A stretch of DNA of 64,000 bases from Candidatus Nomurabacteria bacterium. Lineage in GTDB: Bacteria; Patescibacteriota; Minisyncoccia; Phycocordibacterales; UBA9973. The position numbers were made by a program, and so were the translations under genes. How positions within the stretch are numbered: position 1 is the stretch's first letter; each line of letters opens with the position of its first letter. Positions 26,109-61,364 of this stretch are shown one piece after another. The stretch spans positions 66,327-130,326 of the forward strand of contig JACQGC010000013.1 of assembly GCA_016199805.1 (NCBI GenBank). The letters are read 5' to 3'. Below the pieces are notes generated by a model. The model was not told where the DNA came from, searched no databases, and saw nothing but the letters and a program-made list of their open reading frames with translations.

Positions 26109-26240
26109 ACCTATATTTTAGTACAAAAACCAGAAAAATCAAAGCAAAATACAACCCCTCCCTAACCCTCCCCTTATCATGGGAAGGAAAATACGTAGGG
26201 TTAGAAGTCCCCCTGACAAGGGGGATTTAGGGGGTTGCAT

Positions 26241-38658: not shown

Positions 38659-40179
38659 ATGCCAGAAAATAAAATAAACAAAATAATATCACGCCCGCCT
38701 GTGGTGGTAGTCATGGGCCATGTGGACCACGGCAAGTCTACGCTTTTGGATTATATCCGAAAAACCAACGTGGTGGAATGTGAAGCCGGAGGCATAACCC
38801 AGTGCATTTCCGCTTATGAAGTCGTGCATAAAAACGAGGAAGGTATTGATAAAAAAATAACCTTTCTGGATACTCCCGGACATGAAGCATTTTCAAAAAT
38901 GCGCGAACGCGGGGCGGAAGTAGCCGATATTGCCATTCTAGTGGTCTCGGCAGCCGATGGAGTAAAACCTCAGACTATAGAAGCTTGGAAAACCATCGTG
39001 GAATCCAAAATCCCCTGCCTGGTGGCCATAAACAAAATAGACAAACCGGGTGCCAATATAGAAAAAACAAAAACGGAACTGGCTGAGCATGAGATTTATT
39101 TGGAAAACTATGGCGGTAAAATTCCGTTTGTGGAAATTTCCGCAAAGATAGGCACCGGCGTAGACAATTTACTCTCACTTATTTTGATTATTGCCGAGAT
39201 GGAAAACTTGACCGGTGATTCCGGTGAAGATGCTTCCGGGTTTGTAATCGAAGTGAACTTGGATTCCAGGCGTGGAATAATGGCAACCCTGCTCATAAAA
39301 AATGGCTCAATCAAGAAAGGGATGACTGTCGCTGTGGAAAATGCAGTTTGTTCCACCCGCATAATCGAGAATTTTATGGGGAAAACGATAGATAATGCCA
39401 CTTTCTCTTCTCCTGTCCGTATCATGGGCTTTGATAAAATGCCGAGAGTGGGAGCGCAGTTCAAATCTTTTGCGAAAAAATCTGACGCGGAAGAATATGC
39501 GGAAAACTGGAAAAGTTTAGAAGTCCTGCCTCTAAGTGGAAGCAAAACCTCTAAGTCAGATAAAAAAATTATCCCGATAATTTTGAAAGCCGATGTTTCC
39601 GGCTCGCTCGAAGCCATCGAGAAAGAAATAGCTAAAATAAAAAATAAAACGGGTGTGGACAACGCCGAGTTTAGAATCATATCAAAAGGAGTGGGGCCTA
39701 TTTCCGAATCGGACATAAAAGGAGTGACTTCGGGAGAAGATGTATTGGTCATAGGGTTCAACGTGAAGGCCGACCGTAGCGCCGTAGAAATAGCCCAAAC
39801 GAGAGGTATAGTAATTTCTCACTTTGAAATTATTTATAAAATGACGGAATGGCTGGAAGAACAAATGGAAGAAAAGAGACCAAAAGTCGAAACCATTGAA
39901 ACGACCGGGCAAGCCAAGATTATCCGAGCCTTCAGCCGCACCAAGGAACGCCAAATAATAGGCGGCAAGGTGACCAGCGGAGAAATAAAATTGAATTCGA
40001 CTGTCAGAATAATGCGCCGGGAATTTGAAATTGGCCGCGGGAAAATTGTAAACTTGGAAAAGAGTAAAACAAAAGTAAGTAGTGTGGAGGAAGGTACAGA
40101 ATTCGGGATGATGCTGGAATCCAAAGTGGAAGTCGTAGCTGGAGATGTCCTCGAATCGTTTGCCATAACTCAAAAATAA
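38659..40179 (+). CDS. infB: translation initiation factor IF-2, short form (506 aa)
   Basis: '[20 protein letters not shown]', '[16 protein letters not shown]', 'NKIDKPGA'. Confidence 0.95.
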
Positions 40180-40227
40180 TTCACCTCACTCTAGCCCTCT
40201 CCTTGTAAAGGAGAGGGGAAATAAATT

Positions 40228-40551
40228 ATGAATCAAAGAAACGAAAAAGTTGCGAATAATATAAAAGAACTCACGGCGCAGTACCTGGGACGTGAGAATA
40301 ATAAAAGCTCTCTCATCACTGTCACCGGTTGCACCGTCTCCCCTGACCTAAAAAGGGCAACTATTTTTATCACTGTCCTGCCGGATTCCAAACAAGACGC
40401 CGCTCTGTTTTTCGTAAAAAGAAATCTGAAAGACGTCCGGGAGTTTCTGAAGGAAAATCTGGCAATAAAAATAATTCCTTTCCTGGATGTGGAGATAGAT
40501 TTGGGCGAAAAGAACCGCCAGAAAATTGACGAACTGCTGCGAAAAACGTAA
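40228..40551 (+). CDS. rbfA: ribosome-binding factor A
   Basis: 'RATIFITVLPDSKQDAALFFVKRNLKDVREFLKENLAIKIIPFLDVEID'. Confidence 0.85.
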   Translation: MNQRNEKVANNIKELTAQYLGRENNKSSLITVTGCTVSPDLKRATIFITVLPDSKQDAALFFVKRNLKDVREFLKENLAIKIIPFLDVEIDLGEKNRQKIDELLRKT

Positions 40552-48247: not shown

Positions 48248-50707
48248 TTATATGCAAGCGAGCGAGGCTATACCGTCTCCTCCGCGCAGGCGCATGACTG
48301 TCACGCCTTGAGTCTGACGCCCCAATGAAGAAATATCTTTGAGGGGTGTGCGGATGACCTGTCCTTTTTTGGACATGGCTATGAGCTCGGCTTCTTCGCC
48401 ACTGAGTACTTTGGCCACAATAAGCTTGCCTGTTTTTGGAGTCACTTTGGCTGTCTTTACGCCGGAGCCGCCGCGCTTTTGAACTTTGTATTCTTTCAAG
48501 TCGGTTTTCTTACCAAAACCGTTTGCGCTCATGGTCAGGAAGGCCGCCTTTTCACTGGTCTTCTTTATGACATCCACGCCGATGACTTGGTCACTTTTAC
48601 CAAGTCTGATGCCACTCACCCCGCCGGCAGTTCGTCCCATTTCGCGAACATCCGATTCTTTAAATCTGATGGATTGTCCGTCGGCAGTAGCTATCATCAC
48701 TTCGTCTCCTTTTTCAGTTACCAGCGCGGAAATAAGTTGGTCGTCTTTGTCGAGCCGAATAGCAATGATACCGCTACGGCGAACATCTTTGAAACCGGAG
48801 CTGGCCATTTTCTTGGCTGTGCCGCTTTTGGTGACAAGCATCAAAGAAGAAGGCGTCGTGCCCAAATCTTTTGGCATAGCCAAAATAGACGTGACTTTTT
48901 CATCTCCGGAAAGAGCCAAGAAATTCATGATGGATTTACCACGTGTGGCTCTACGACCTTCGGGAATATCGTACATTTTCATTTGGTAAACTTTTCCGAG
49001 GTTGGTAAAGAACAAGAGGTTGCTGTGCGTGGAACCGGAAACCAACATGGTCACAAAGTCTTCTTCTTTGGTTTCGAGGTCTATCACCCCCACTCCGCCG
49101 CGTTTCTGCGCGTGATATTCCGCAGGATCGGTGCATTTCACATATCCGCCGGCAGTCAGCACCAGCATGGTTTCTTTCTCCGGAACCAAATCTTCGTCGG
49201 AAATTTCTTTGACTCCGCCTTTGACTATCCTGGTTCTTCTTTCGTCGGAATATTTTTCCCGGATTTCTTTCAGTTCATCTGCGATGGTCTTCAGTATTTT
49301 CTTTGGGCTCGAGAGTAAGTCTTTCATCATGGCAATAAATTTCTGCTTCTCGGCAAGTTCATCTTCCACCGCTTTGCGCTCCAGTCCGGCCAGTTTTGCC
49401 AGCTTCATTTCCAAAATAGCCGTGGCCTGCAGGTCCGAAAACTTAAATTCCTTCATCAGGTTTAGTTTAGCCAGCTGGGAATTTTTTGAACCACGGATGA
49501 CGGTGATGACCCGGTCTATCTTATCCAGGGCTTTCTTTAAGCCGAGTAAAATGTGTTCCCGTTCTTCAGCTTTACGCAAGTCATAAGCGCTTCGGCGTTT
49601 GACAACTTCTTTTCTATGCTCAATAAATAAGGCTAAAATGGATTTTAGGGATAAAGTTTGAGGCACTCCGTCCACCAAGGCTACCATGTTGAAATTGAAA
49701 TTTGATTCAAGCTGGGTATTTTTGTAAATATAATTTAAAACTTTCTCGGGGTGCGCGCTCCCTTTCAAATCAATAACGATGCGAATGTCTTTGGTGGATT
49801 CATCTCGCAGACCCTTGATACCTTCCAGCTTTTTTTCCTGCACCAATTCCGCGATACTGACAATCAAATTGGCTTTGTTTACCCGGAAAGGAATGGAAGT
49901 TATAATGATAGAGAAATTCCCATCTTTTTGCTCGACTATTTCCGCTTCTCCTCGGCAAACCACTCCGCCGCGGCCAGAACCGTATGCATGAAGCATGTCT
50001 TTGTAGCCATAGGCAATGCCACCCGTAGGGAAATCCGGACCTTTTACAAATTGCATCAGGTCTTCGGTAGTGGCTTCATCGTTTTCAATTAAATAATTTG
50101 TCGCGTCCAAAACTTCCGCAAGATTGTGTGAAGGAATGTTTGTTGCCATACCAACGGCGATACCCAAAGTACCATTCAAGAGAAGTGCGGGCACGTTGGC
50201 TGGTAAAACTATCGGTTCTTTGCGGGTTTGGTCATAGTTTGGACGGAAATCCACTGTTTCCTTTTCCAAATCTTTCAGCAGTTCATTTGAAATTTTAGAC
50301 ATTTTTGCTTCGGTATAACGCATAGCCGCGGCATTGTCTCCATCTATAGAACCGAAGTTTCCTTGCCCGATAACCAGCGGATAACGATAAGAAAATTCCT
50401 GGGCCATACCCACCATGGAATCATAGACTGCTGTGTCGCCATGTGGATGATATTTTCCAAGCACATCTCCGACAATGGCCGCGGACTTGCGAAAACGCGC
50501 CGTGGAAGTGAGCCCCATTTCATTCATACCAAAAAGAATTCGGCGGTGCACTGGTTTGAGCCCATCCCGAACATCCGGCAGAGCGCGCGAAGTGATGACC
50601 GACATGGCATAGGCCAAGTATGACTCTTTCATTTCAGCAACGACATCCACTTGCAGAATTTCGTCTCTGGGTTTTTCTTCAATTGTTTCTACGTTCTTCT
50701 TCGCCAT
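48248..50707 (-). CDS. gyrA: DNA gyrase subunit A
   Basis: '[18 protein letters not shown]', '[26 protein letters not shown]', C-terminal beta-pinwheel repeats; 819 aa. Confidence 0.95.
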
Positions 50708-50933
50708 CCCATTAAAAAATTAAATTGATAAACTTTATTTTTTTACAAGTCCGCTGATTTTCTAACGGGACAAGTAAATTATTTATTTCATTAAAGTAAC
50801 TCCCAATGAATAAATCCATAGCAGAATTAAAATAACACCGCACACCACCACGAGAACATGCAAAACATGCCTTCTTACGTGTTGCGGTTGTCGTCTTATT
50901 CGTCTGATGTGATGAAAAATTTTTTCCATATAA

Positions 50934-51560
50934 TTACATTTCCTTTAAAACCACCACTTCTCCTTCTTTACCCTCTAAGTCTTTTCTCTTTAAGGTTAGC
51001 TTATCTACTGTTTCTGCTTTTTCTTCTCCCATCTCTTTCAGGAATGCTTTGAGCGTTTTGTCGTCGTAGTCCATAGGAATTATCATCTTTGGTTCAAGCG
51101 ATGAAGCCAGCTTAGCGGAAGATTTTGCATCGAGCATGCCGTTTCCGCCAACCGGAACAAAAAGAATATCCGGGCCATCGATAGCTTCACGGGTCTCTTT
51201 GGAAAGTTCCCCTTCTCCGAGCGCTCCCAAGAAAGCAATATTGATGCCATCCACAGAAAAAACATAGATAGTGTTTATATATTTTTTGCCGGTAAGTTCG
51301 GCGGGTGACATTACTCCTTTCACAAAAATTTCTTTGATTTCGTAGTCTCCCGGACCGTTGATGACAAAGGGTGCCCTGTCGCCATGAGAAAGTTGGTCTA
51401 CGCCGTTGTAATCCGGATGATTTGTCGTTACCAGCGCAATATCCGCGCCAAAATGTGCCGAAATGCCCGTCTTGGAGCTCTTGCTAACAGGATTAAAAGC
51501 TAAGACCAAGTCTCCTTGGCCAATCTTAAAAAACTGCTTGCCGAAATATGTGATAATCAT
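50934..51560 (-). CDS. metal-dependent hydrolase of the beta-lactamase fold (UPF0173-like); start placed at the internal Met
   Basis: 'MIITYFGKQFFKIGQGDLVLAFNP', 'TTNHPDYNGVD', 'DILFVPVGGNGMLD'. Confidence 0.6.
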   Translation of the reverse strand: MIITYFGKQFFKIGQGDLVLAFNPVSKSSKTGISAHFGADIALVTTNHPDYNGVDQLSHGDRAPFVINGPGDYEIKEIFVKGVMSPAELTGKKYINTIYVFSVDGINIAFLGALGEGELSKETREAIDGPDILFVPVGGNGMLDAKSSAKLASSLEPKMIIPMDYDDKTLKAFLKEMGEEKAETVDKLTLKRKDLEGKEGEVVVLKEM

Positions 51561-51597
51561 TAGGTGTATTATAGCAGAAAAATTCTGAAAACAAAAG

Positions 51598-51660
51598 AGA
51601 GAATTCAGGCAATTCAGCCTCACCCCCTACCCCCTCTCCAGAGTACTGGCGAGGGGAAAA
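51598..51660 (+). repeat. GC-rich imperfect palindromic repeat, copy 1 ('cctcaccccctaccccctctccagagtactggcgaggggaaaa')
   Basis: About 92% identical direct repeat of 51862..51925. Internal hairpin CCCCTC-U-CCAG-AGUA-CUGG-C-GAGGGG. Confidence 0.7.
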
Positions 51661-51715
51661 CTCACAACATAAATTTTTACTGGCGGTGCTCCTTGAAGGT
51701 GCGACCGCCAGCGTT

Positions 51716-51826
51716 CTAGTGGGACCATTCGGCTCCCACTACGACTCCCGCAACAAATATTGCAAGGAGGAGAGTGAAAACTCCCATCGTTCTCACTACT
51801 ATCCTCAATTTCTCGACGTAGGACAT
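51716..51826 (-). CDS. candidate 36-aa hydrophobic small protein (MSYVEKLRIVVRTMGVFTLLLAIFVAGVVVGAEWSH) with strong SD
   Basis: Manual translation. 'ggagg' lies 5 nt upstream of the ATG. Single predicted TM. GC-rich segment flanked by the two direct repeats. Confidence 0.3.
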   Translation of the reverse strand: MSYVEKLRIVVRTMGVFTLLLAIFVAGVVVGAEWSH

Positions 51827-51861
51827 GGCGCCTCCAAATAAGATATTACAACTATGGAATA

Positions 51862-51925
51862 TTTAGTCAATTCCGCCTCACCCCTTATCCCCTCTCCAGA
51901 GTACTGGCGAGGGGAAAATACAAAA
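51862..51925 (+). repeat. GC-rich imperfect palindromic repeat, copy 2
   Basis: 'caattccgcctcaccccttatcccctctccagagtactggcgaggggaaaa'. Confidence 0.7.
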
Positions 51926-52282
51926 TCAATTACTTGATAATTCTTTTATTTTATTCCTGATCTTGCCTATGGCATTCTCTAGGTTGCTTTCAATTTCTGA
52001 ATTCCAGAATCTCAAAACGTCTATATTTTTCCGGTTTAGGTAGTCCGTTCTATCTTTATCCCATTCTTTGTTTTCCTTTTCTTTGTGTGGAGAGCCATCA
52101 AGTTCAATGGCGAGTTTTAAGTCTGAAGCATAGAAGTCCAGAATATACATATCAACTGGATGCTGTCTTCTGAACTTTATGCCTAGTTTTTTATTTCTTA
52201 GTTTTTGCCACAAAATCTTTTCTGCTTTAGTCTCTTCTTGCCTTAAAACTCTTGCTTTGAGTATTGTTTTTAGTACTGGCAT
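51926..52282 (-). CDS. DUF559 (Vsr/very-short-patch-repair-like) endonuclease-domain protein
   Basis: 'GIKFRRQHPVDMYILDFYASDLKLAIELDGSPH...DVLRFWNSEI'. Confidence 0.7.
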   Translation of the reverse strand: MPVLKTILKARVLRQEETKAEKILWQKLRNKKLGIKFRRQHPVDMYILDFYASDLKLAIELDGSPHKEKENKEWDKDRTDYLNRKNIDVLRFWNSEIESNLENAIGKIRNKIKELSSN

Positions 52283-52304
52283 GAAAATAGTTTTTTAATC
52301 AGCG

Positions 52305-52826
52305 CTAAACCTTGATATATTTATAAATCTCATCAATAACTTCCATGAGGGGACGGTCTGCATTTATTGGAATAGCTCCTTCTTCCAATACTTCCTTTTC
52401 AAAATTTTTATACCAACTTAAAATATTTTCTTGATCTAAGGGATGTTTGCCGAAATCATGACTTTCTCTGTCTATGATTCTTTTCATAAAAGTTTCTTCT
52501 TTACACTTAAGCAAGAAAACCTTATCAAATAAACCTCTCAACTCGGAACGGTTATTAAATAGCCCCGCAACAGCTACAATATCTTTTGGACTATTTTTTA
52601 TCAGATTAGTTAATTTTTCTTTGTCACAAACATATTGATGCTTCCAATACCAATCTTTGGTCATCCCAGGGTGCCACTCTACTACTTCTTTTGTTTCTTT
52701 ATCTATCCAATGAGTTAAACCTTTAACTGAGTCTGCGTCAATAGGAAAAACACTCTTTTCGGCCAATTTTTCCACAACTGTAGATTTTCCTGTACCAGCA
52801 TTACCCGTTATATAAAATACTTTCAT
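52305..52826 (-). CDS. P-loop NTPase / small-molecule-kinase-like protein (start at internal 'MKVFYITG')
   Basis: Walker A 'GNAGTGKST'. Size and layout resemble adenylate/shikimate-kinase-like enzymes. Confidence 0.5.
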   Translation of the reverse strand: MKVFYITGNAGTGKSTVVEKLAEKSVFPIDADSVKGLTHWIDKETKEVVEWHPGMTKDWYWKHQYVCDKEKLTNLIKNSPKDIVAVAGLFNNRSELRGLFDKVFLLKCKEETFMKRIIDRESHDFGKHPLDQENILSWYKNFEKEVLEEGAIPINADRPLMEVIDEIYKYIKV

Positions 52827-52844
52827 AAACCAATAATACCACAT

Positions 52845-52960
52845 TCCCCTCGCCAGACCTCACCCTGCCCTCTCCGAAGTACCAGAGAGGGTTCGAACTC
52901 CTTCTCCAGTAATCTGGGGAAGGTTGGGATGGGGCTGGAGAGGGGTCAGGGGTGAGGCTT
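52845..52960 (+). repeat. degenerate inverted/nested copy of the GC-rich palindromic repeat
   Basis: 'cccctcgccag...cctcaccctgccctctccgaagtaccagagaggg...ctggagaggggtcaggggtgagg'. Confidence 0.55.
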
Positions 52961-53109
52961 GTGTTTTGGATTATTTCATAGTACTATCTGTTTAGTTGAA
53001 TATATATTAAAAGCAGGATTTGGGGTAACCCTCCCGGCATGAGTACGCCCCGAGAACCTAAACCTTATATCCGCTTTCATGCGGATGTTTTAATTTAATA
53101 AAGAATATT

Positions 53110-54204
53110 ATGAATGTAGATATAAAAGATACGGAAGAAATAGTGCCTGAAAATTTGGTTTTGAGTTCTATCACTGAACGCAGTGTAAACAAGCCGGAAG
53201 TTGATTCCCTGGTGGAAGGTCCGGTTATTTTAGTGGAAAAATCTTCCGTCTATGTAGATTTGAGCCCCTATGGCACAGGTATCATTTACGGACGGGAATT
53301 TATCAACGCCAAAGACGTAATCAAAAAGATAAGCTTGGGCGACATCGTCAAAGCGAAAATCGTCGACGCGGAAAATGAAGACGGCTACATAGAGCTTTCT
53401 CTAAAAGAAGCAAAGCAAGCCCTCACCTGGAGTGAAGCCGAAAAAGCTATTAAGGCAAAAACAATTTTGGACTTGGAGGTAAAAGACGCAAACAAAGGTG
53501 GTTTGATTTTGGAATGGCAAGGTATTCAGGGATTCTTGCCCGCTTCCCAACTCAAAGCCGACCATTATCCAAGAGTTCTGGATTCCGATAAAGATAAAAT
53601 TTTGAAAGAATTAAAAAAGCTCGTCGGCACGCGTATTTCTGTGATGATTATTTCCACCCTTCCAAAAGAAGGAAAACTAATTTTCTCCGAGAAAGACAAC
53701 AATCCTGAAGAGAAAAAAGAAGTTTTGAGTAAATACAACATCGGCGACACGGTAGACTGCACCGTCGCCGGCATAGTGGACTTCGGAGTATTCCTTAAGC
53801 TGGAAGAAGGGCTGGAAGGACTCGTGCATATCTCCGAGCTCGACTGGGGCCTGGTAGAAGACCCACGCAATCTGTTTAAAATCGGAGATAAAGTGGCAGC
53901 CAAAGTTATTGAAATCAAAGACGGAAAAATATCCCTTTCCTTAAAAGCTTTGAAGGAAAACCCTTGGAAAGAATTCGAGGGTAAATTGAAGAAAGGAGAC
54001 ATCATCAAAGGTGTCGTCATCAAGTACAACAAACACGGCGCGTTGGTATCCATCAAGGAAGGCGTAGCCGGACTGGTGCACAATTCCACCTTCCCTTCTG
54101 AAACCGCGCTTCGGACAAAATTGGAACTTGGCAAGAATTATAATTTTCAAATTACACTATTTGAACCTAGAGACCAGAAGATGACTTTGATTTACTTGGA
54201 ATAA
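53110..54204 (+). CDS. S1-domain RNA-binding protein (ribosomal protein S1-like, 4 S1 repeats)
   Basis: Repeated 'G..V.G.V..I...GAFV.L..G..GL.HIS' S1 units (e.g. 'GDTVDCTVAGIVDFGVFLKLEEGLEGLVHISEL'). Confidence 0.8.
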   Translation: MNVDIKDTEEIVPENLVLSSITERSVNKPEVDSLVEGPVILVEKSSVYVDLSPYGTGIIYGREFINAKDVIKKISLGDIVKAKIVDAENEDGYIELSLKEAKQALTWSEAEKAIKAKTILDLEVKDANKGGLILEWQGIQGFLPASQLKADHYPRVLDSDKDKILKELKKLVGTRISVMIISTLPKEGKLIFSEKDNNPEEKKEVLSKYNIGDTVDCTVAGIVDFGVFLKLEEGLEGLVHISELDWGLVEDPRNLFKIGDKVAAKVIEIKDGKISLSLKALKENPWKEFEGKLKKGDIIKGVVIKYNKHGALVSIKEGVAGLVHNSTFPSETALRTKLELGKNYNFQITLFEPRDQKMTLIYLE

Positions 54205-54212
54205 AACTAAAT

Positions 54213-54262
54213 CAAGCACAAAAAAAAGAACGCCTAAGCGTTCTTTTTTTTGTGCTTGATAT
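54213..54262. terminator. bidirectional rho-independent terminator between convergent genes
   Basis: 20-bp perfect inverted repeat 'aagcacaaaaaaaagaacgc-ctaa-gcgttcttttttttgtgctt'. Confidence 0.75.
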
Positions 54263-54271
54263 CAGTATTTT

Positions 54272-54892
54272 TTATATATTCGCCGCAACAGTAGACGAGA
54301 TAGCTGCCATATCTTCCCTACCTATGTCTTTCATTATAGCCAACACTTGTTCGGCATAACGAGGCACGATAGACGGCGGATTGTATGCGTTCAAAATCTG
54401 CTTGGTGGTTTTGTTGTCATAATGTCTGGCCGTGTTTGGATTGTTACCACCCAGATTTTTGGCCACAGTCTCGATAGTCTCATCTAGGGTTTTAAAGCTA
54501 ATCTTGCATGAGCCCCAACCGAATGGATTATTTTCCGCTTTTTTACAGTCGAACTTTCCACCTGTAGACTCTCGCACAGCAATAGCCGGCAACAATCTCC
54601 AGTCCAGGTCGTTAGCCTCTGCTTCTTCCGCCATCTTCAGTCCCATGCCTTCGAGTGGCATATCATGGGCCGCAAAGTAAGCATCGATGGCGTCTGCTTC
54701 CAATTTAAGGGTTGGGTCGACAGAAACCGCTGGAGAAATAAACGCAACTTGAGGCTGGTTTATAGCACTGATACTACCCGGAATATTCCCGAGAGGTATC
54801 GTCATGGTCATTATTGGTAAGATAATAAACGACTCCACGAACCTTATTGTTTTTGTTTTTTTCATAATGGGCGGTTGTGCTCCGCCAAACAA
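54272..54892 (-). CDS. secreted GH73-like (FlgJ/glucosaminidase-type) peptidoglycan hydrolase (tentative)
   Basis: 'LPAIAVRESTGGKFDCKKAENNPFGWG' resembles the GH73 'ESGWG....NN.FGIK' motif. N-terminal hydrophobic segment. Confidence 0.4.
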   Translation of the reverse strand: MFGGAQPPIMKKTKTIRFVESFIILPIMTMTIPLGNIPGSISAINQPQVAFISPAVSVDPTLKLEADAIDAYFAAHDMPLEGMGLKMAEEAEANDLDWRLLPAIAVRESTGGKFDCKKAENNPFGWGSCKISFKTLDETIETVAKNLGGNNPNTARHYDNKTTKQILNAYNPPSIVPRYAEQVLAIMKDIGREDMAAISSTVAANI

Positions 54893-60154: not shown

Positions 60155-61364
60155 AATGATGCTTTACACCTTTGATTTCCTGATAGTCTTCGTGGCCTTT
60201 GCCGGCGCAGAGTATTATGTCCCCTTTTTGCGCGAGCTTTACGGCTTCGGCTATAGCTTCATACCTGTTGGCATTTGTTTTAACTTTTTTGAAATCTTCT
60301 ATGGATAATCCTTCTTTCATCTGTTCAATTATCTTCTCCGGGTCTTCGCTGCGCGGATTGTCGGAGGTAAAAATAGCAAAGTCCGAAAGGGTTGCTCCTA
60401 TTTTCCCCATGATTTTTCTTTTCATCGGGTCGCGGTCACCCCCACAGCCAAAAACAGAAATTATTTTACTGTTTTCTTTTCTAATCTCCCTTATTGCTAA
60501 AAGAATTTTCTCCAAAGCATCCGGCGTATGCGCGTAATCCACCACTACCAAAACTCCGCTCTCCGAAGTAAAGTGCTGAAATCTGCCCGCCGGGGGTTCT
60601 ATGGTTTCCAAAATCTTATTTACTTTATCCATATCAAAACCCAAGAGCGAGCATGCGCTCCAGACAGAGAGCAGATTGTAAGCGTTAAACTTGCCCAAAA
60701 GTTTCGATTTGATTGGTATATCATTGAAAGAAAGTTCCAGCCCATCAAAATCCAGCTTTTTGATTTCCCCTTGAAACAACACCTCTTCCCCTATCCCAAG
60801 GATAGGGGAAAATCCGTAAGAAAATTTATTGGCTTGTATGCCTTGCAGCATTTTTAGACCGTATTCATCGTCGGCGTTTGTAAGCGCAAAAGCCGGTCTC
60901 GGCAACATTTGAAAAAATTTCTTTTTGGCGGCAAAATAATTCTCGAAGTTTTTGTGATAATCCAGGTGGTCGTGCGTCAGATTGGTAAAAATACCGCCAA
61001 CAAAATTCACTCCCCGAACTCTGCCTTGGTCTAGGGCATGACTGGAGACTTCCATAAAAACATATTCACAACCATTTTCCACCATCTCACTAAAAAGCCT
61101 GGTGAGAGTTATAGAATCGGGAGTGGTGTGTATAGCCGGCTTGGCTTCTTTGACGATAATATTTTCAACAGTGCTCACCAATCCTGCTTTATAGCCGAGC
61201 GCAGTAGCAATCCTATAGAGCAAAGTAGCTGTAGTAGTCTTGCCATTGGTTCCCGTCACACCAACGATTTTCAACTTGCGAGTCGGATGACCGTAATAAT
61301 ACATAGCCCCGACGGATTTACCTCTCCACCAGATTGTTTTCAGTTTTTTGGATATGGATTTCAA
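60117..61364 (-). CDS. murE: UDP-N-acetylmuramoyl-tripeptide synthetase MurE (meso-DAP type, N-terminally short 415 aa)
   Basis: 'IVGVTGTNGKTTTATLL', 'MEVSSHAL', 'NLTHDHLDYH', 'DNPR' specificity motif. ATGA overlap with the upstream gene. Confidence 0.85.
   Translation of the reverse strand: MKSISKKLKTIWWRGKSVGAMYYYGHPTRKLKIVGVTGTNGKTTTATLLYRIATALGYKAGLVSTVENIIVKEAKPAIHTTPDSITLTRLFSEMVENGCEYVFMEVSSHALDQGRVRGVNFVGGIFTNLTHDHLDYHKNFENYFAAKKKFFQMLPRPAFALTNADDEYGLKMLQGIQANKFSYGFSPILGIGEEVLFQGEIKKLDFDGLELSFNDIPIKSKLLGKFNAYNLLSVWSACSLLGFDMDKVNKILETIEPPAGRFQHFTSESGVLVVVDYAHTPDALEKILLAIREIRKENSKIISVFGCGGDRDPMKRKIMGKIGATLSDFAIFTSDNPRSEDPEKIIEQMKEGLSIEDFKKVKTNANRYEAIAEAVKLAQKGDIILCAGKGHEDYQEIKGVKHHFDDMEEFKKLYE

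Follow-up and report, generated by a model that had tools for sequence, protein, structure and literature searches.

What do the GC-rich palindromic repeats mark that surround a small nuclease gene in a genome of Candidatus Nomurabacteria, a bacterium of the candidate phyla radiation (CPR)? The window, by which we mean the whole 64-kb stretch of DNA analysed (GC content 0.414), contains several copies of such a repeat around a DUF559 endonuclease gene and a P-loop kinase-like gene. An initial annotation of this locus had suggested either a small mobile or recombination-prone cassette, with ends resembling repetitive extragenic palindromes (REPs) or miniature inverted-repeat transposable elements (MITEs), or hairpins acting as terminators or insulators. 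We find that DUF559 genes are associated with flanking repeat units of this type, bidirectionally and across phyla, and we hold this association to be real with high confidence. On balance we favour the view that the locus is a mobile cassette, namely a DUF559-centred selfish element in which the repeats represent terminal inverted repeats and empty relics and the kinase a passenger.

The two direct repeats, which had been described as about 51 bp in length and about 92% identical, agree at 57 of 65 positions (88%) between 51603-51667 and 51861-51925, and at 42 of 45 positions (93%) over a core located at 51616-51660 and 51874-51918. Both copies contain the exact 26-mer CCCCTCTCCAGAGTACTGGCGAGGGG, which occurs twice in the window and in none of 100 shuffles, and for both the exact and the 3-mismatch pattern of the repeat the window shuffles give 0 matches expected by chance. 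The imperfect palindrome noticed in each copy corresponds to this 26-mer, which is predicted to fold into a 10-bp hairpin with one internal mismatch (-18.9 and -20.1 kcal/mol; z -3.0 and -3.9 versus shuffles), the computational folding being confined to the hairpin part of the units. Read on the C-rich strand, which defines the strand of a unit, the order of segments is a head CCTCACCCC, 3-4 nt, the stem-loop CCCCTC-T-CCAG / AGTA / CTGG-C-GAGGGG and AAAA. Unit A (51616-51660, plus strand, with the hairpin at 51631-51656 followed by the AAAA tail) and unit B (51874-51918, plus strand) scored 56.5 and 54.2 bits in a scan of the window with a covariance model built from 40 related units.

Unit B forms the inverted terminal repeat on the right-hand, downstream side of the DUF559 element. 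When the gene-sense strand is read, its hairpin comes before the head and starts 11 nt past the DUF559 stop codon, a position that is matched in L003, L005, L216 and about 20 further loci (L-numbers denote loci). The third copy, annotated as nested and inverted, proved to be a single inverted unit at 52844-52960, here called composite C, with 79 nt in place of its loop. The G-stem half of the outer unit (TTCCCCTCGCCA in plus-strand letters, 52844-52855) and its C-stem and head half (CTGGAGAGGGGTCAGGGGTGAGGCT, likewise in plus-strand letters, 52935-52959), both assigned to the minus strand, together make up the inverted terminal repeat on the left, upstream side of the cassette; in the relative L005 the same unit is unbroken and has the loop AGTAC. 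The 79-nt insert (52856-52934) consists of unit alpha (52856-52891, plus strand, 27.3 bits), TTCGAA and unit beta (52898-52934, minus strand, 23.4 bits), two opposed units in the order head-hairpin / hairpin-head with nothing between them, and hence an empty inverted-repeat pair. The inverted pairs of the window are thus C with B and alpha with beta. All clear units are intergenic, and five of the six are clustered in the 1.4 kb around the DUF559 gene, only part of the composite's outer unit being detected; the sixth is a solitary and more divergent unit (CCTCACTCTAGCCCTCTCCTTGTAAAGGAGAGGGGAAA) at 40181-40221 on the plus strand (26.2 bits, E 2.7e-5).

As had been annotated, the repeats enclose a DUF559 gene and a P-loop kinase gene. 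The DUF559 gene (51926-52282, minus strand, GC 0.342) encodes a YcjD-like protein of 118 amino acids (aa) that matches Pfam PF04480 with an E-value of 4.9e-33 (113.7 bits against a curated cut-off of 20.6) and has a relative of solved structure in 3HRL (E 6e-36). Residues D49, E60 and D62 are invariant in an alignment of 15 diverse sequences, and from the family match and these acidic residues the protein is predicted to be a Vsr-fold PD-(D/E)XK endonuclease. The kinase-like gene (52305-52826, minus strand, 173 aa, alternative start at 52844, GC 0.333) is placed between the left repeat and DUF559; its product matches AAA_18 (E 7.5e-9) and has weak similarity to dephospho-CoA and nucleoside kinases.

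Judged by their sequences, the window repeats are variant members of the BoxC/PIT/TMECO family of intrastrand-triplex repeats, a family that is already known. The BoxC repeat of E. coli, described in the 1990s, was rediscovered as a potential intrastrand triplex (PIT) and then as TMECO (Holder et al. 2015, PMC4666352); earlier BoxC/PIT work includes that of Bachellier et al. in the 1990s and of Hoyne and Maher in 2000 and 2002. On its minus strand, unit B reads CCCCTCGCC..GGAGAGGGG-ATAA-GGGGTGAGG, that is a C-stem, a G-stem and a G-head, or in full CCCCTCGCC(AG)-TACT-(CT)GGAGAGGGG-ATAA-GGGGTGAGG. Mirroring GGAGAGGGG gives GGGGAGAGG, from which the head is distinguished solely by a change of A to T, and the mirror relation also holds in variant units such as CCTTCCCC with the head CCCCATCC and in the types found in L258 and L271. 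Shared with the known family are the plan of C-stem, complementary G-stem and mirror G-block with the block sequences CCCTCNCC / GGNGAGGG / GGGTGAGG, a CTCGCC/GGAGAG stem mismatch as in 'type A mm', the commonest type in E. coli, and an intergenic location in either orientation, as singlets and inverted pairs, at variable loci. The window units differ in that a CCAG/CTGG helix with an AGTA loop extends the stem, the blocks are displaced by one base, and they occur in a low-GC CPR bacterium, the 2015 survey having reported proteobacteria and cyanobacteria. They also form the two ends of a nuclease gene cassette, a link unmentioned in those parts of the BoxC/PIT/TMECO literature that were consulted. 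The literal TMECO pattern, CCCTCNCCC-N3-6-GGGNGAGGG-N3-GGGNGAGGG (PMC4666352), matches neither unit A nor unit B because the stem runs on as CCAG/CTGG; CCCTCGCCA and TGGAGAGGG stand at the ninth and first positions, and the length of the second loop is 3 nt for unit A and 4 nt for unit B. We therefore file the units as a variant rather than as canonical TMECO. An Rfam scan of 50500-54500, with E-values up to 1, gave no match to the repeats.

E. coli K-12 contains 23 TMECO copies, all intergenic and five of them inverted pairs, and TMECO oligonucleotides of E. coli form intrastrand triplexes in vitro according to circular dichroism and nuclear magnetic resonance (NMR); the 2015 paper assigned the repeats neither a function nor a mechanism of spread (PMC4666352). 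In total, 3,610 copies of BoxC/PIT/TMECO have been reported across 262 proteobacterial genomes. The four G-tracts on the G-rich strand might also be read as a G-quadruplex, a structure that was excluded by NMR for TMECO (Holder et al., PMC4666352).

To these the present scans add a broad range of hosts. A relaxed pattern, applied to one genome per species, gave at least 120 stretches, and the matches listed span Planctomycetota, Bacteroidota, Chloroflexota, Cyanobacteria, Verrucomicrobiota, Proteobacteria, Actinobacteria and others; by our rough estimate about 1 to 100 matches are expected by chance in the whole genome collection. The fetched loci contained 390 units, as compared with 0 after block shuffling. 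A metagenome scan with the CCAG...CTGG subtype pattern, which was taken from a DUF559 flank, gave at least 120 loci. Among the matches listed, the version with an AGTA/ATTA loop occurred only in low-GC, CPR-like contigs. The stems of the CPR-type units covary, with 85% of cells paired versus 48-61% when the partners were slid, and with 22 double-change cells versus 6.4 in shuffles. A high-GC subfamily, GGCCTCACCCCC..CCCCTCTCCAGTGCGCTGGCGAGGGGCGATCC.., is abundant in soil metagenome contigs (GC about 0.70), often as inverted pairs ~100 nt apart; it was seen in L133, L136, L137, L140, L149, L150 and about 15 more loci and yields a cluster of 76 spurious ORFs (open reading frames).

To quantify the association with the nuclease, DUF559 genes were counted with a 117-position profile made from trimmed domains and run on six-frame ORFs. 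The genome loci sampled by motif (120 loci, 840 kb, diverse phyla) contained 6 DUF559 genes, all of which lie within 300 bp of a unit and are flanked by units on both sides, while only 10.7% of the bases in these loci are within 300 bp of a unit (0.107^6 = 1.5e-6). In the 120 metagenome loci sampled by motif, 27 of the 28 DUF559 genes lie within 300 bp of a unit. Clustering of the ORFs within 300 bp of units over the 240 loci placed DUF559 in 28 loci and the next real families in at most 6. The flanks of DUF559 always consist of an inverted unit pair, at -11 to 152 nt from the gene and often overlapping its 3' end. In the commonest arrangement, the upstream unit is 23-126 nt ahead of the gene and the downstream unit -11 to 28 nt from its end, where it often encodes the last residues of the DUF559 protein (...PSP).

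The converse sample was protein-first and blind to the motif, and comprised 22 DUF559 loci from viral contigs found with a CPR-limited DUF559 alignment. Of the 18 testable loci, 13 had inverted repeats of 23-68 nt on their flanks that were highly significant (z 9-35). Just one of the 13 had the canonical repeat sequence, and most of the other flanks contained different GC-rich sequences with the plan C-stem, G-stem, sometimes a small extra hairpin, and mirror G block. In further protein-first loci from metagenomes and genomes, all five DUF559 proteins examined (two from CPR bacteria, one from a 3.5-Mb genome, one from Acinetobacter and one from an Anaerolineaceae contig) were flanked by triplex-type units, the Anaerolineaceae contig having two tandem DUF559 genes that are both flanked. 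Tight inverted repeats also surround DUF559 in L216 and L284, and decayed copies of the gene are common (L152, L187, L201, L209). What is constant across the flank types is the three-block structure and not the sequence, and many units share one conserved stem mismatch. Many of the IMG/VR contigs L252-L266 (4-9 kb, GC about 0.72) end ~39 nt past DUF559, inside the flanking inverted repeat, and the provirus or contig boundaries of this set may have been placed by the DUF559-flanking repeats. Our literature search returned no paper connecting the DUF559 nuclease with BoxC/PIT/TMECO repeats, within an incomplete coverage that makes an earlier description possible, and the pairing appears to be both undescribed and general. 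'DUF559 domain-containing protein' is enriched among predicted inversion targets, with an odds ratio of 14 (PMC9881135).

We also examined the variability of the cassette among relatives, whose neighbourhoods were fetched by exact-protein look-ups and whose junctions were read. The cassette occupies the intergenic site between the genes for an S1-domain protein and an MBL-fold hydrolase. Where the identity of the MBL protein to that of the window is 92% (L008, L009 and L010), this site has no kinase, no DUF559 and none of these units; at 94% (L005) the kinase and DUF559 are found between two simple inverted units of about 42 nt; at 96% (L003 and L004) the left unit has in addition received the 79-nt insert. 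The window and a Logan contig of the same strain (100%) add unit A and a 213-bp orphan segment to the L003 state, and these are restricted to the window strain, unit A being absent from L003 and L005. At about 77% identity, L146 has an empty inverted unit pair at the S1-MBL site and carries a unit-flanked DUF559 element after gyrA instead, while L152 and L187 have a truncated DUF559, which in L152 is directed towards S1 and thus opposite to the window. The S1-MBL site is hit repeatedly, with elements gained, lost and inverted among close relatives. Of the two observations that had been named as telling against a cassette, a ubiquitous repeat and conservation of the cassette in all relatives, the former is true of the repeat family and the latter is contradicted by the relatives that lack it.

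The element is found elsewhere too. A DUF559 protein 88% identical to that of the window is encoded in L216, tightly bracketed by the same units and without the kinase, in a neighbourhood of PAP2, SecD, SecF and LemA genes. The annotated view that DUF559 genes are sporadic and selfish-like is borne out, in a more specific form than was claimed. The halves of the 79-nt insert recur as DUF559 flanks in L139, L188, L201, L216, L234 and L247, and the insert therefore looks like an element that lost its gene. The kinase is restricted to close relatives (L003-L006, L157, L194, L210) and for this reason looks like a passenger; its membership in a conserved unit was rejected on the same grounds. The recurrent unit thus looks like DUF559 plus two flanking units, with the kinase as a lineage-specific passenger. 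Hence, of the cassette with REP- or MITE-like ends that had been suggested, the variable and inverted copies stand, whereas the ends are not a private REP/MITE family and the kinase falls outside the core. Identities to L003 and L005 are 78% for the kinase and 87-90% for DUF559 as compared with 93-97% for the flanking genes, and the GC content of the cassette genes is 0.33-0.34 versus 0.414 for the window. We take the low GC and the greater divergence of the cassette genes as signs of foreign origin.

Two further observations concern the junctions. A short-read assembly of the same strain (L001, L002; Logan SRR12113408) is broken exactly at composite C, as would be expected if the units are repeated in that community or genome. 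In L209 (2800-3300) and L228 (7050-7650) the DUF559 element is flanked by two ~90%-identical copies of the last ~70 nt of the upstream host gene (...KKVKIPMM*). Such a diverged duplicate of ~70 nt is unlike a short target-site duplication; the element seems to have carried along a gene end of its own, in the manner of integrating or homing elements.

In E. coli K-12, a partial triplex-motif unit extends over the stop codon of ycjD (NC_000913.3 1349500-1352500; L251 1700-2264), and the locus also contains a duplicated fragment of a second DUF559 3' end, with TMECO #9 about 170 bp downstream. The gene is located at the fabI-sapF site, where other E. coli phylogroups carry eefRABCD (PMC12817139), and the ycjD locus was found in 3,377 of 5,426 complete E. 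coli genomes. For 60 evenly spaced complete genomes, the number of motif places was 11-27 (median 19) in those with ycjD and 1-16 (median 5) in those without.

Insertions into coding sequences were also observed. A unit-DUF559-unit block is present in frame and free of stop codons in metG of a betaproteobacterial MAG (metagenome-assembled genome; L044:1777-4515, minus strand) and of a Variovorax MAG (L014:2-2161, plus strand), in the linker between the MetRS core and the C-terminal tRNA-binding domain. A similar block is in frame inside LeuRS (leuS) of a Cytophagales MAG (L080:5682-8000, plus strand), just ahead of the TTRPDT motif. The in-frame units are translated as PSP...GEG linkers. In about 40 of the 120 protein clusters listed, DUF559 is combined with the tRNA-binding domain of MetRS and in some of these with its core as well, and many of them are named 'methionine--tRNA ligase subunit beta'. 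Close relatives are without the in-frame insert, and metG occurs both with and without DUF559 among Burkholderiales-like relatives.

How might such a cassette move? Among the members of the Vsr/DUF559 group are a nicking enzyme specific for mismatches and a group I intron homing endonuclease (PMC3424549). Since it is the three-block structure rather than the sequence that is conserved, we propose that the DUF559 nuclease recognises the hairpin or three-block fold of its cognate repeat, each subfamily having its own type, and the feature recognised may be the conserved single mismatch that arises when the stem forms. The repeat would be folded when single-stranded in replication or when extruded as a cruciform, and the nuclease would nick or break it. 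Recombinational repair would then copy or move the element, or home it into empty repeat pairs or conserved sites, and solitary and paired repeats would be left behind as it moves. Homing into conserved genes, including metG and leuS, would leave repeats that are translated as Pro/Ser/Gly linkers. At the S1-MBL site, an empty pair, that is an element without its gene, would have landed in the loop of the left repeat, and the extra right-hand unit with the 213-bp orphan segment would have been added in the window strain only. That the nuclease acts on its flanking repeats is a tentative suggestion, as is transposition of the cassette. The family resemblance, the inverted-repeat architecture, the presence/absence and orientation polymorphism, the gene-less pairs and singlets and the cross-phylum association of DUF559 with the units are observed. 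With some reserve, the proposal may be extended to bacteria at large, where BoxC/PIT/TMECO could be the terminal repeats and gene-less relics of widespread selfish elements whose sole constant gene is a YcjD-like DUF559.

Several points weigh against this reading. The search for a target-site duplication suggested at the outset found none (L005, L003 and the window versus the L008 site), and a clean empty site could not be defined: the L008 intergenic region, where an AT-rich hairpin of another kind stands instead of the cassette, differs by more than a simple insertion. We know of no strand-transfer activity or domain in the DUF559 nuclease, which is tiny (~118 aa). Two opposite arrangements of the flanks occur, with the heads outside in CPR-like and some other loci and with the heads inside in Gemmataceae, Variovorax, Acinetobacter and others, and the model does not explain them. 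The rate of 27/120 for the metagenome loci is inflated by design, because the pattern derived from a DUF559 flank. Units outnumber DUF559 genes, by 23:1 in K-12 and by at least 6:1 in the window, and E. coli genomes without ycjD retain up to 16 motif places; the difference in motif count between genomes with and without the gene (Mann-Whitney p = 7e-10) is confounded by phylogroup. Plasmids account for only 29 of 79,466 motif places, unlike ordinary transposons, and Holder et al. saw TMECO on no phage, plasmid or transposon and report that a stable triplex was undetected in vivo in E. coli (PMC4666352).

If the nuclease had no functional link to the repeats, the locus might be a passive hot spot, in which units of non-B DNA stall replication and provoke breaks, and DUF559 and the kinase simply accumulate. 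Triplex-motif sites were proposed to be recombination-prone by Holder et al., who found TMECO loci to be more rearranged than control sites among E. coli strains (PMC4666352), and in the same direction point the many states of the S1-MBL site among relatives, the unrelated orphan segment and the kinase that also lie between units in the window, and the E. coli site that has ycjD in place of eefRABCD (PMC12817139). A hot spot should, however, collect many gene families, yet DUF559 is the sole strong recurrence in the 240 motif-centred loci (28 loci versus at most 6). The units sit tightly at both gene ends (-11 to 152 nt) and always as an inverted pair, and DUF559 subfamilies with differing flank sequences share the three-block plan, all of which makes this explanation unlikely. 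Still less probable is that DUF559 is a domesticated caretaker, a host nuclease that processes or resolves triplex-motif structures and is retained beside a pair of its substrates while the repeats spread otherwise and the cassette is immobile, as in the domestication proposed for RAYT (the Y1 transposase associated with REPs). The chromosomal location of the motif and its near absence from plasmids and mobile elements would suit such a role, as would the usual single DUF559 copy beside many units and the larger number of units in ycjD-positive E. coli. Nevertheless, near-identical DUF559 genes and ends occur in unrelated neighbourhoods, presence and orientation vary among close relatives, decayed copies are common (L152, L187, L201, L209), and relatives lack the in-frame insertions in metG and leuS. 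Polymorphism, decay, context-hopping and in-frame insertion therefore give the element a selfish look rather than that of a housekeeping gene.

A selfish DUF559 element is also easier to reconcile with the data than the terminators, insulators or mRNA-stabilising stem-loops at gene ends that had been offered as the alternative, with the flanking of the cassette as mere operon punctuation. The hairpins are stable (-19 to -20 kcal/mol), units A, B and 40181 follow directly past stop codons, and covariation maintains the pairing of the stems (85% versus 48-61%). Yet a T-run after the stem is absent on both strands, where AAAA (plus strand) or the G-rich head (minus strand) follows instead, and the terminator scan called none of the units. 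Composite C is found between divergent genes, on the upstream side of the kinase; a terminator would have no use for the conserved head block, and the specific link to DUF559 would go unexplained. PIT elements were also inactive as promoters or terminators in E. coli, as cited from Hoyne and Maher (2002) in PMC4666352. We consider punctuation very improbable for these reasons, and we give scarcely any credence to a mobilisation of the units in trans by a Y1 (IS200/RAYT-like) transposase. Hairpins with a conserved 5' block, present as singlets and inverted doublets, do recall REPs and REPINs, and a Y1_Tnp gene lies ~4 kb from the cassette in L005 and Y1-like genes ~2 kb from DUF559 in L209 and L228. 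But Y1 transposase is absent from the window (best tblastn E 0.42), the L005 gene is flanked by different hairpins of its own (TGTCAAGG...CCTTGACA), and a Y1 gene was seen in only 3 of about 250 loci and never adjacent to a unit.

The neighbourhood of the DUF559 element includes other features. On the minus strand, the genes for GyrA (48248-50707) and the MBL-fold hydrolase (50934-51560), whose product is 100% identical to a protein in an assembly of Candidatus Nomurabacteria, precede unit A, and the S1-domain protein gene (53110-54204, plus strand) is divergent from the minus-strand genes, including the kinase. Units A and B are separated by the spacer described earlier as ~200 bp long and GC-rich, which measures 213 bp (51661-51873, minus strand by its ORF) and has a GC content of 0.46 against 0.414 for the window. 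It contains a 36-aa hydrophobic ORF (51716-51826, minus strand) with a promoter-like TTGACT-16-TAATAT (51870-51843) and a GGAGG ribosome-binding site upstream, and a stem-loop at 51680-51711 lies beyond its end. No homologue of this ORF was found among 1.84 billion representative proteins, and searches of Pfam, NCBIfam and PADLOC gave no match; we do not claim it as a gene despite the good promoter-like site and ribosome-binding site. The 5' leader of the S1 gene (52976-53100, plus strand) is conserved in L003, L005, L008, L146 and L152 and contains a hairpin ATCCGC-N-GCGGAT and a GGGTAACCC-type segment; this region had no match in Rfam and may be an autoregulatory leader. In L005 (9281-10560), an additional Maf gene and a gene for a Y1 (IS200/RAYT-like) transposase are present beside gyrA. 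Both are missing from the window, and the hairpins that bracket them, TGTCAAGG-N5-CCTTGACA, bear no relation to the triplex-motif units.

Farther from the cassette, the solitary unit at 40181-40221 is placed between a 506-aa ORF ending at 40179 and an ORF starting at 40228. Its G-stem GGAGAGGGG is ~10 nt ahead of the ATG and could double as a ribosome-binding site. Weak and degenerate unit-like sequences were detected at 60779-60811 (17 bits), apparently inside a long ORF, and at 26152-26232, as an inverted pair in the intergenic region 26109-26240.

DUF559 is among the commonest nuclease domains of 'unknown function', and BoxC/PIT/TMECO repeats, which fold into very stable triplexes in vitro and are a mark of unstable loci, have seen three decades of work without a partner protein, a function or a mechanism of spread. 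The link between the two offers a directly testable explanation for both the repeats and the nuclease, and would add a new pairing of enzyme and repeat beside REP/RAYT and IS/MITE. It would also explain why proteins starting with a DUF559 domain carry the name 'methionine--tRNA ligase subunit beta'. The window provides a CPR genome with recently active copies of the DUF559-repeat system.

Among known systems, the in-frame units can be compared with the Rickettsia palindromic elements, which are palindromic repeats that can be located in frame inside protein-coding genes and translated. In this they resemble the DUF559-flanking units inside metG and leuS of other phyla, with no bearing on the window locus; to our knowledge they carry no gene and are restricted to Rickettsia. 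Another parallel is that to homing endonuclease genes, in that a small nuclease gene is present or absent at one site among close relatives, both at the S1-MBL site and in metG. It is found beside or inside conserved essential genes (S1, MBL and gyrA here, and in frame in metG and leuS elsewhere), and decayed copies are common. The DUF559 element differs in that it has no intron or intein as its vehicle and lies between structured inverted repeats, of which there are also many copies without a gene.

MITEs and small insertion sequences (IS) share with the element the terminal inverted repeats, which are about 45 nt here and about 42 nt in L005, the gene-less pairs (the 79-nt insert and the L146 doublet), the nested insertions and the assembly breaks at repeats. 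Unlike in these, a recognisable transposase and a target-site duplication are absent from L005 and the window, the enclosed enzymes are a small nuclease and a kinase-like protein, and the units also occur singly. With REP/RAYT the element has in common a single-copy, nuclease-type gene between inverted cognate hairpin repeats, many gene-less intergenic singlets and doublets, repeats that are specific to the enzyme subfamily, and a chromosomal rather than plasmid-borne location. The DUF559 enzyme, in contrast, is predicted to have a Vsr-type PD-(D/E)XK fold and not that of an HUH Y1 transposase, no Y1 gene is associated with it, and its repeat has a third, mirror block. If the selfish-element reading is true, the DUF559 elements would be the counterpart of REP/RAYT on a different enzyme fold.

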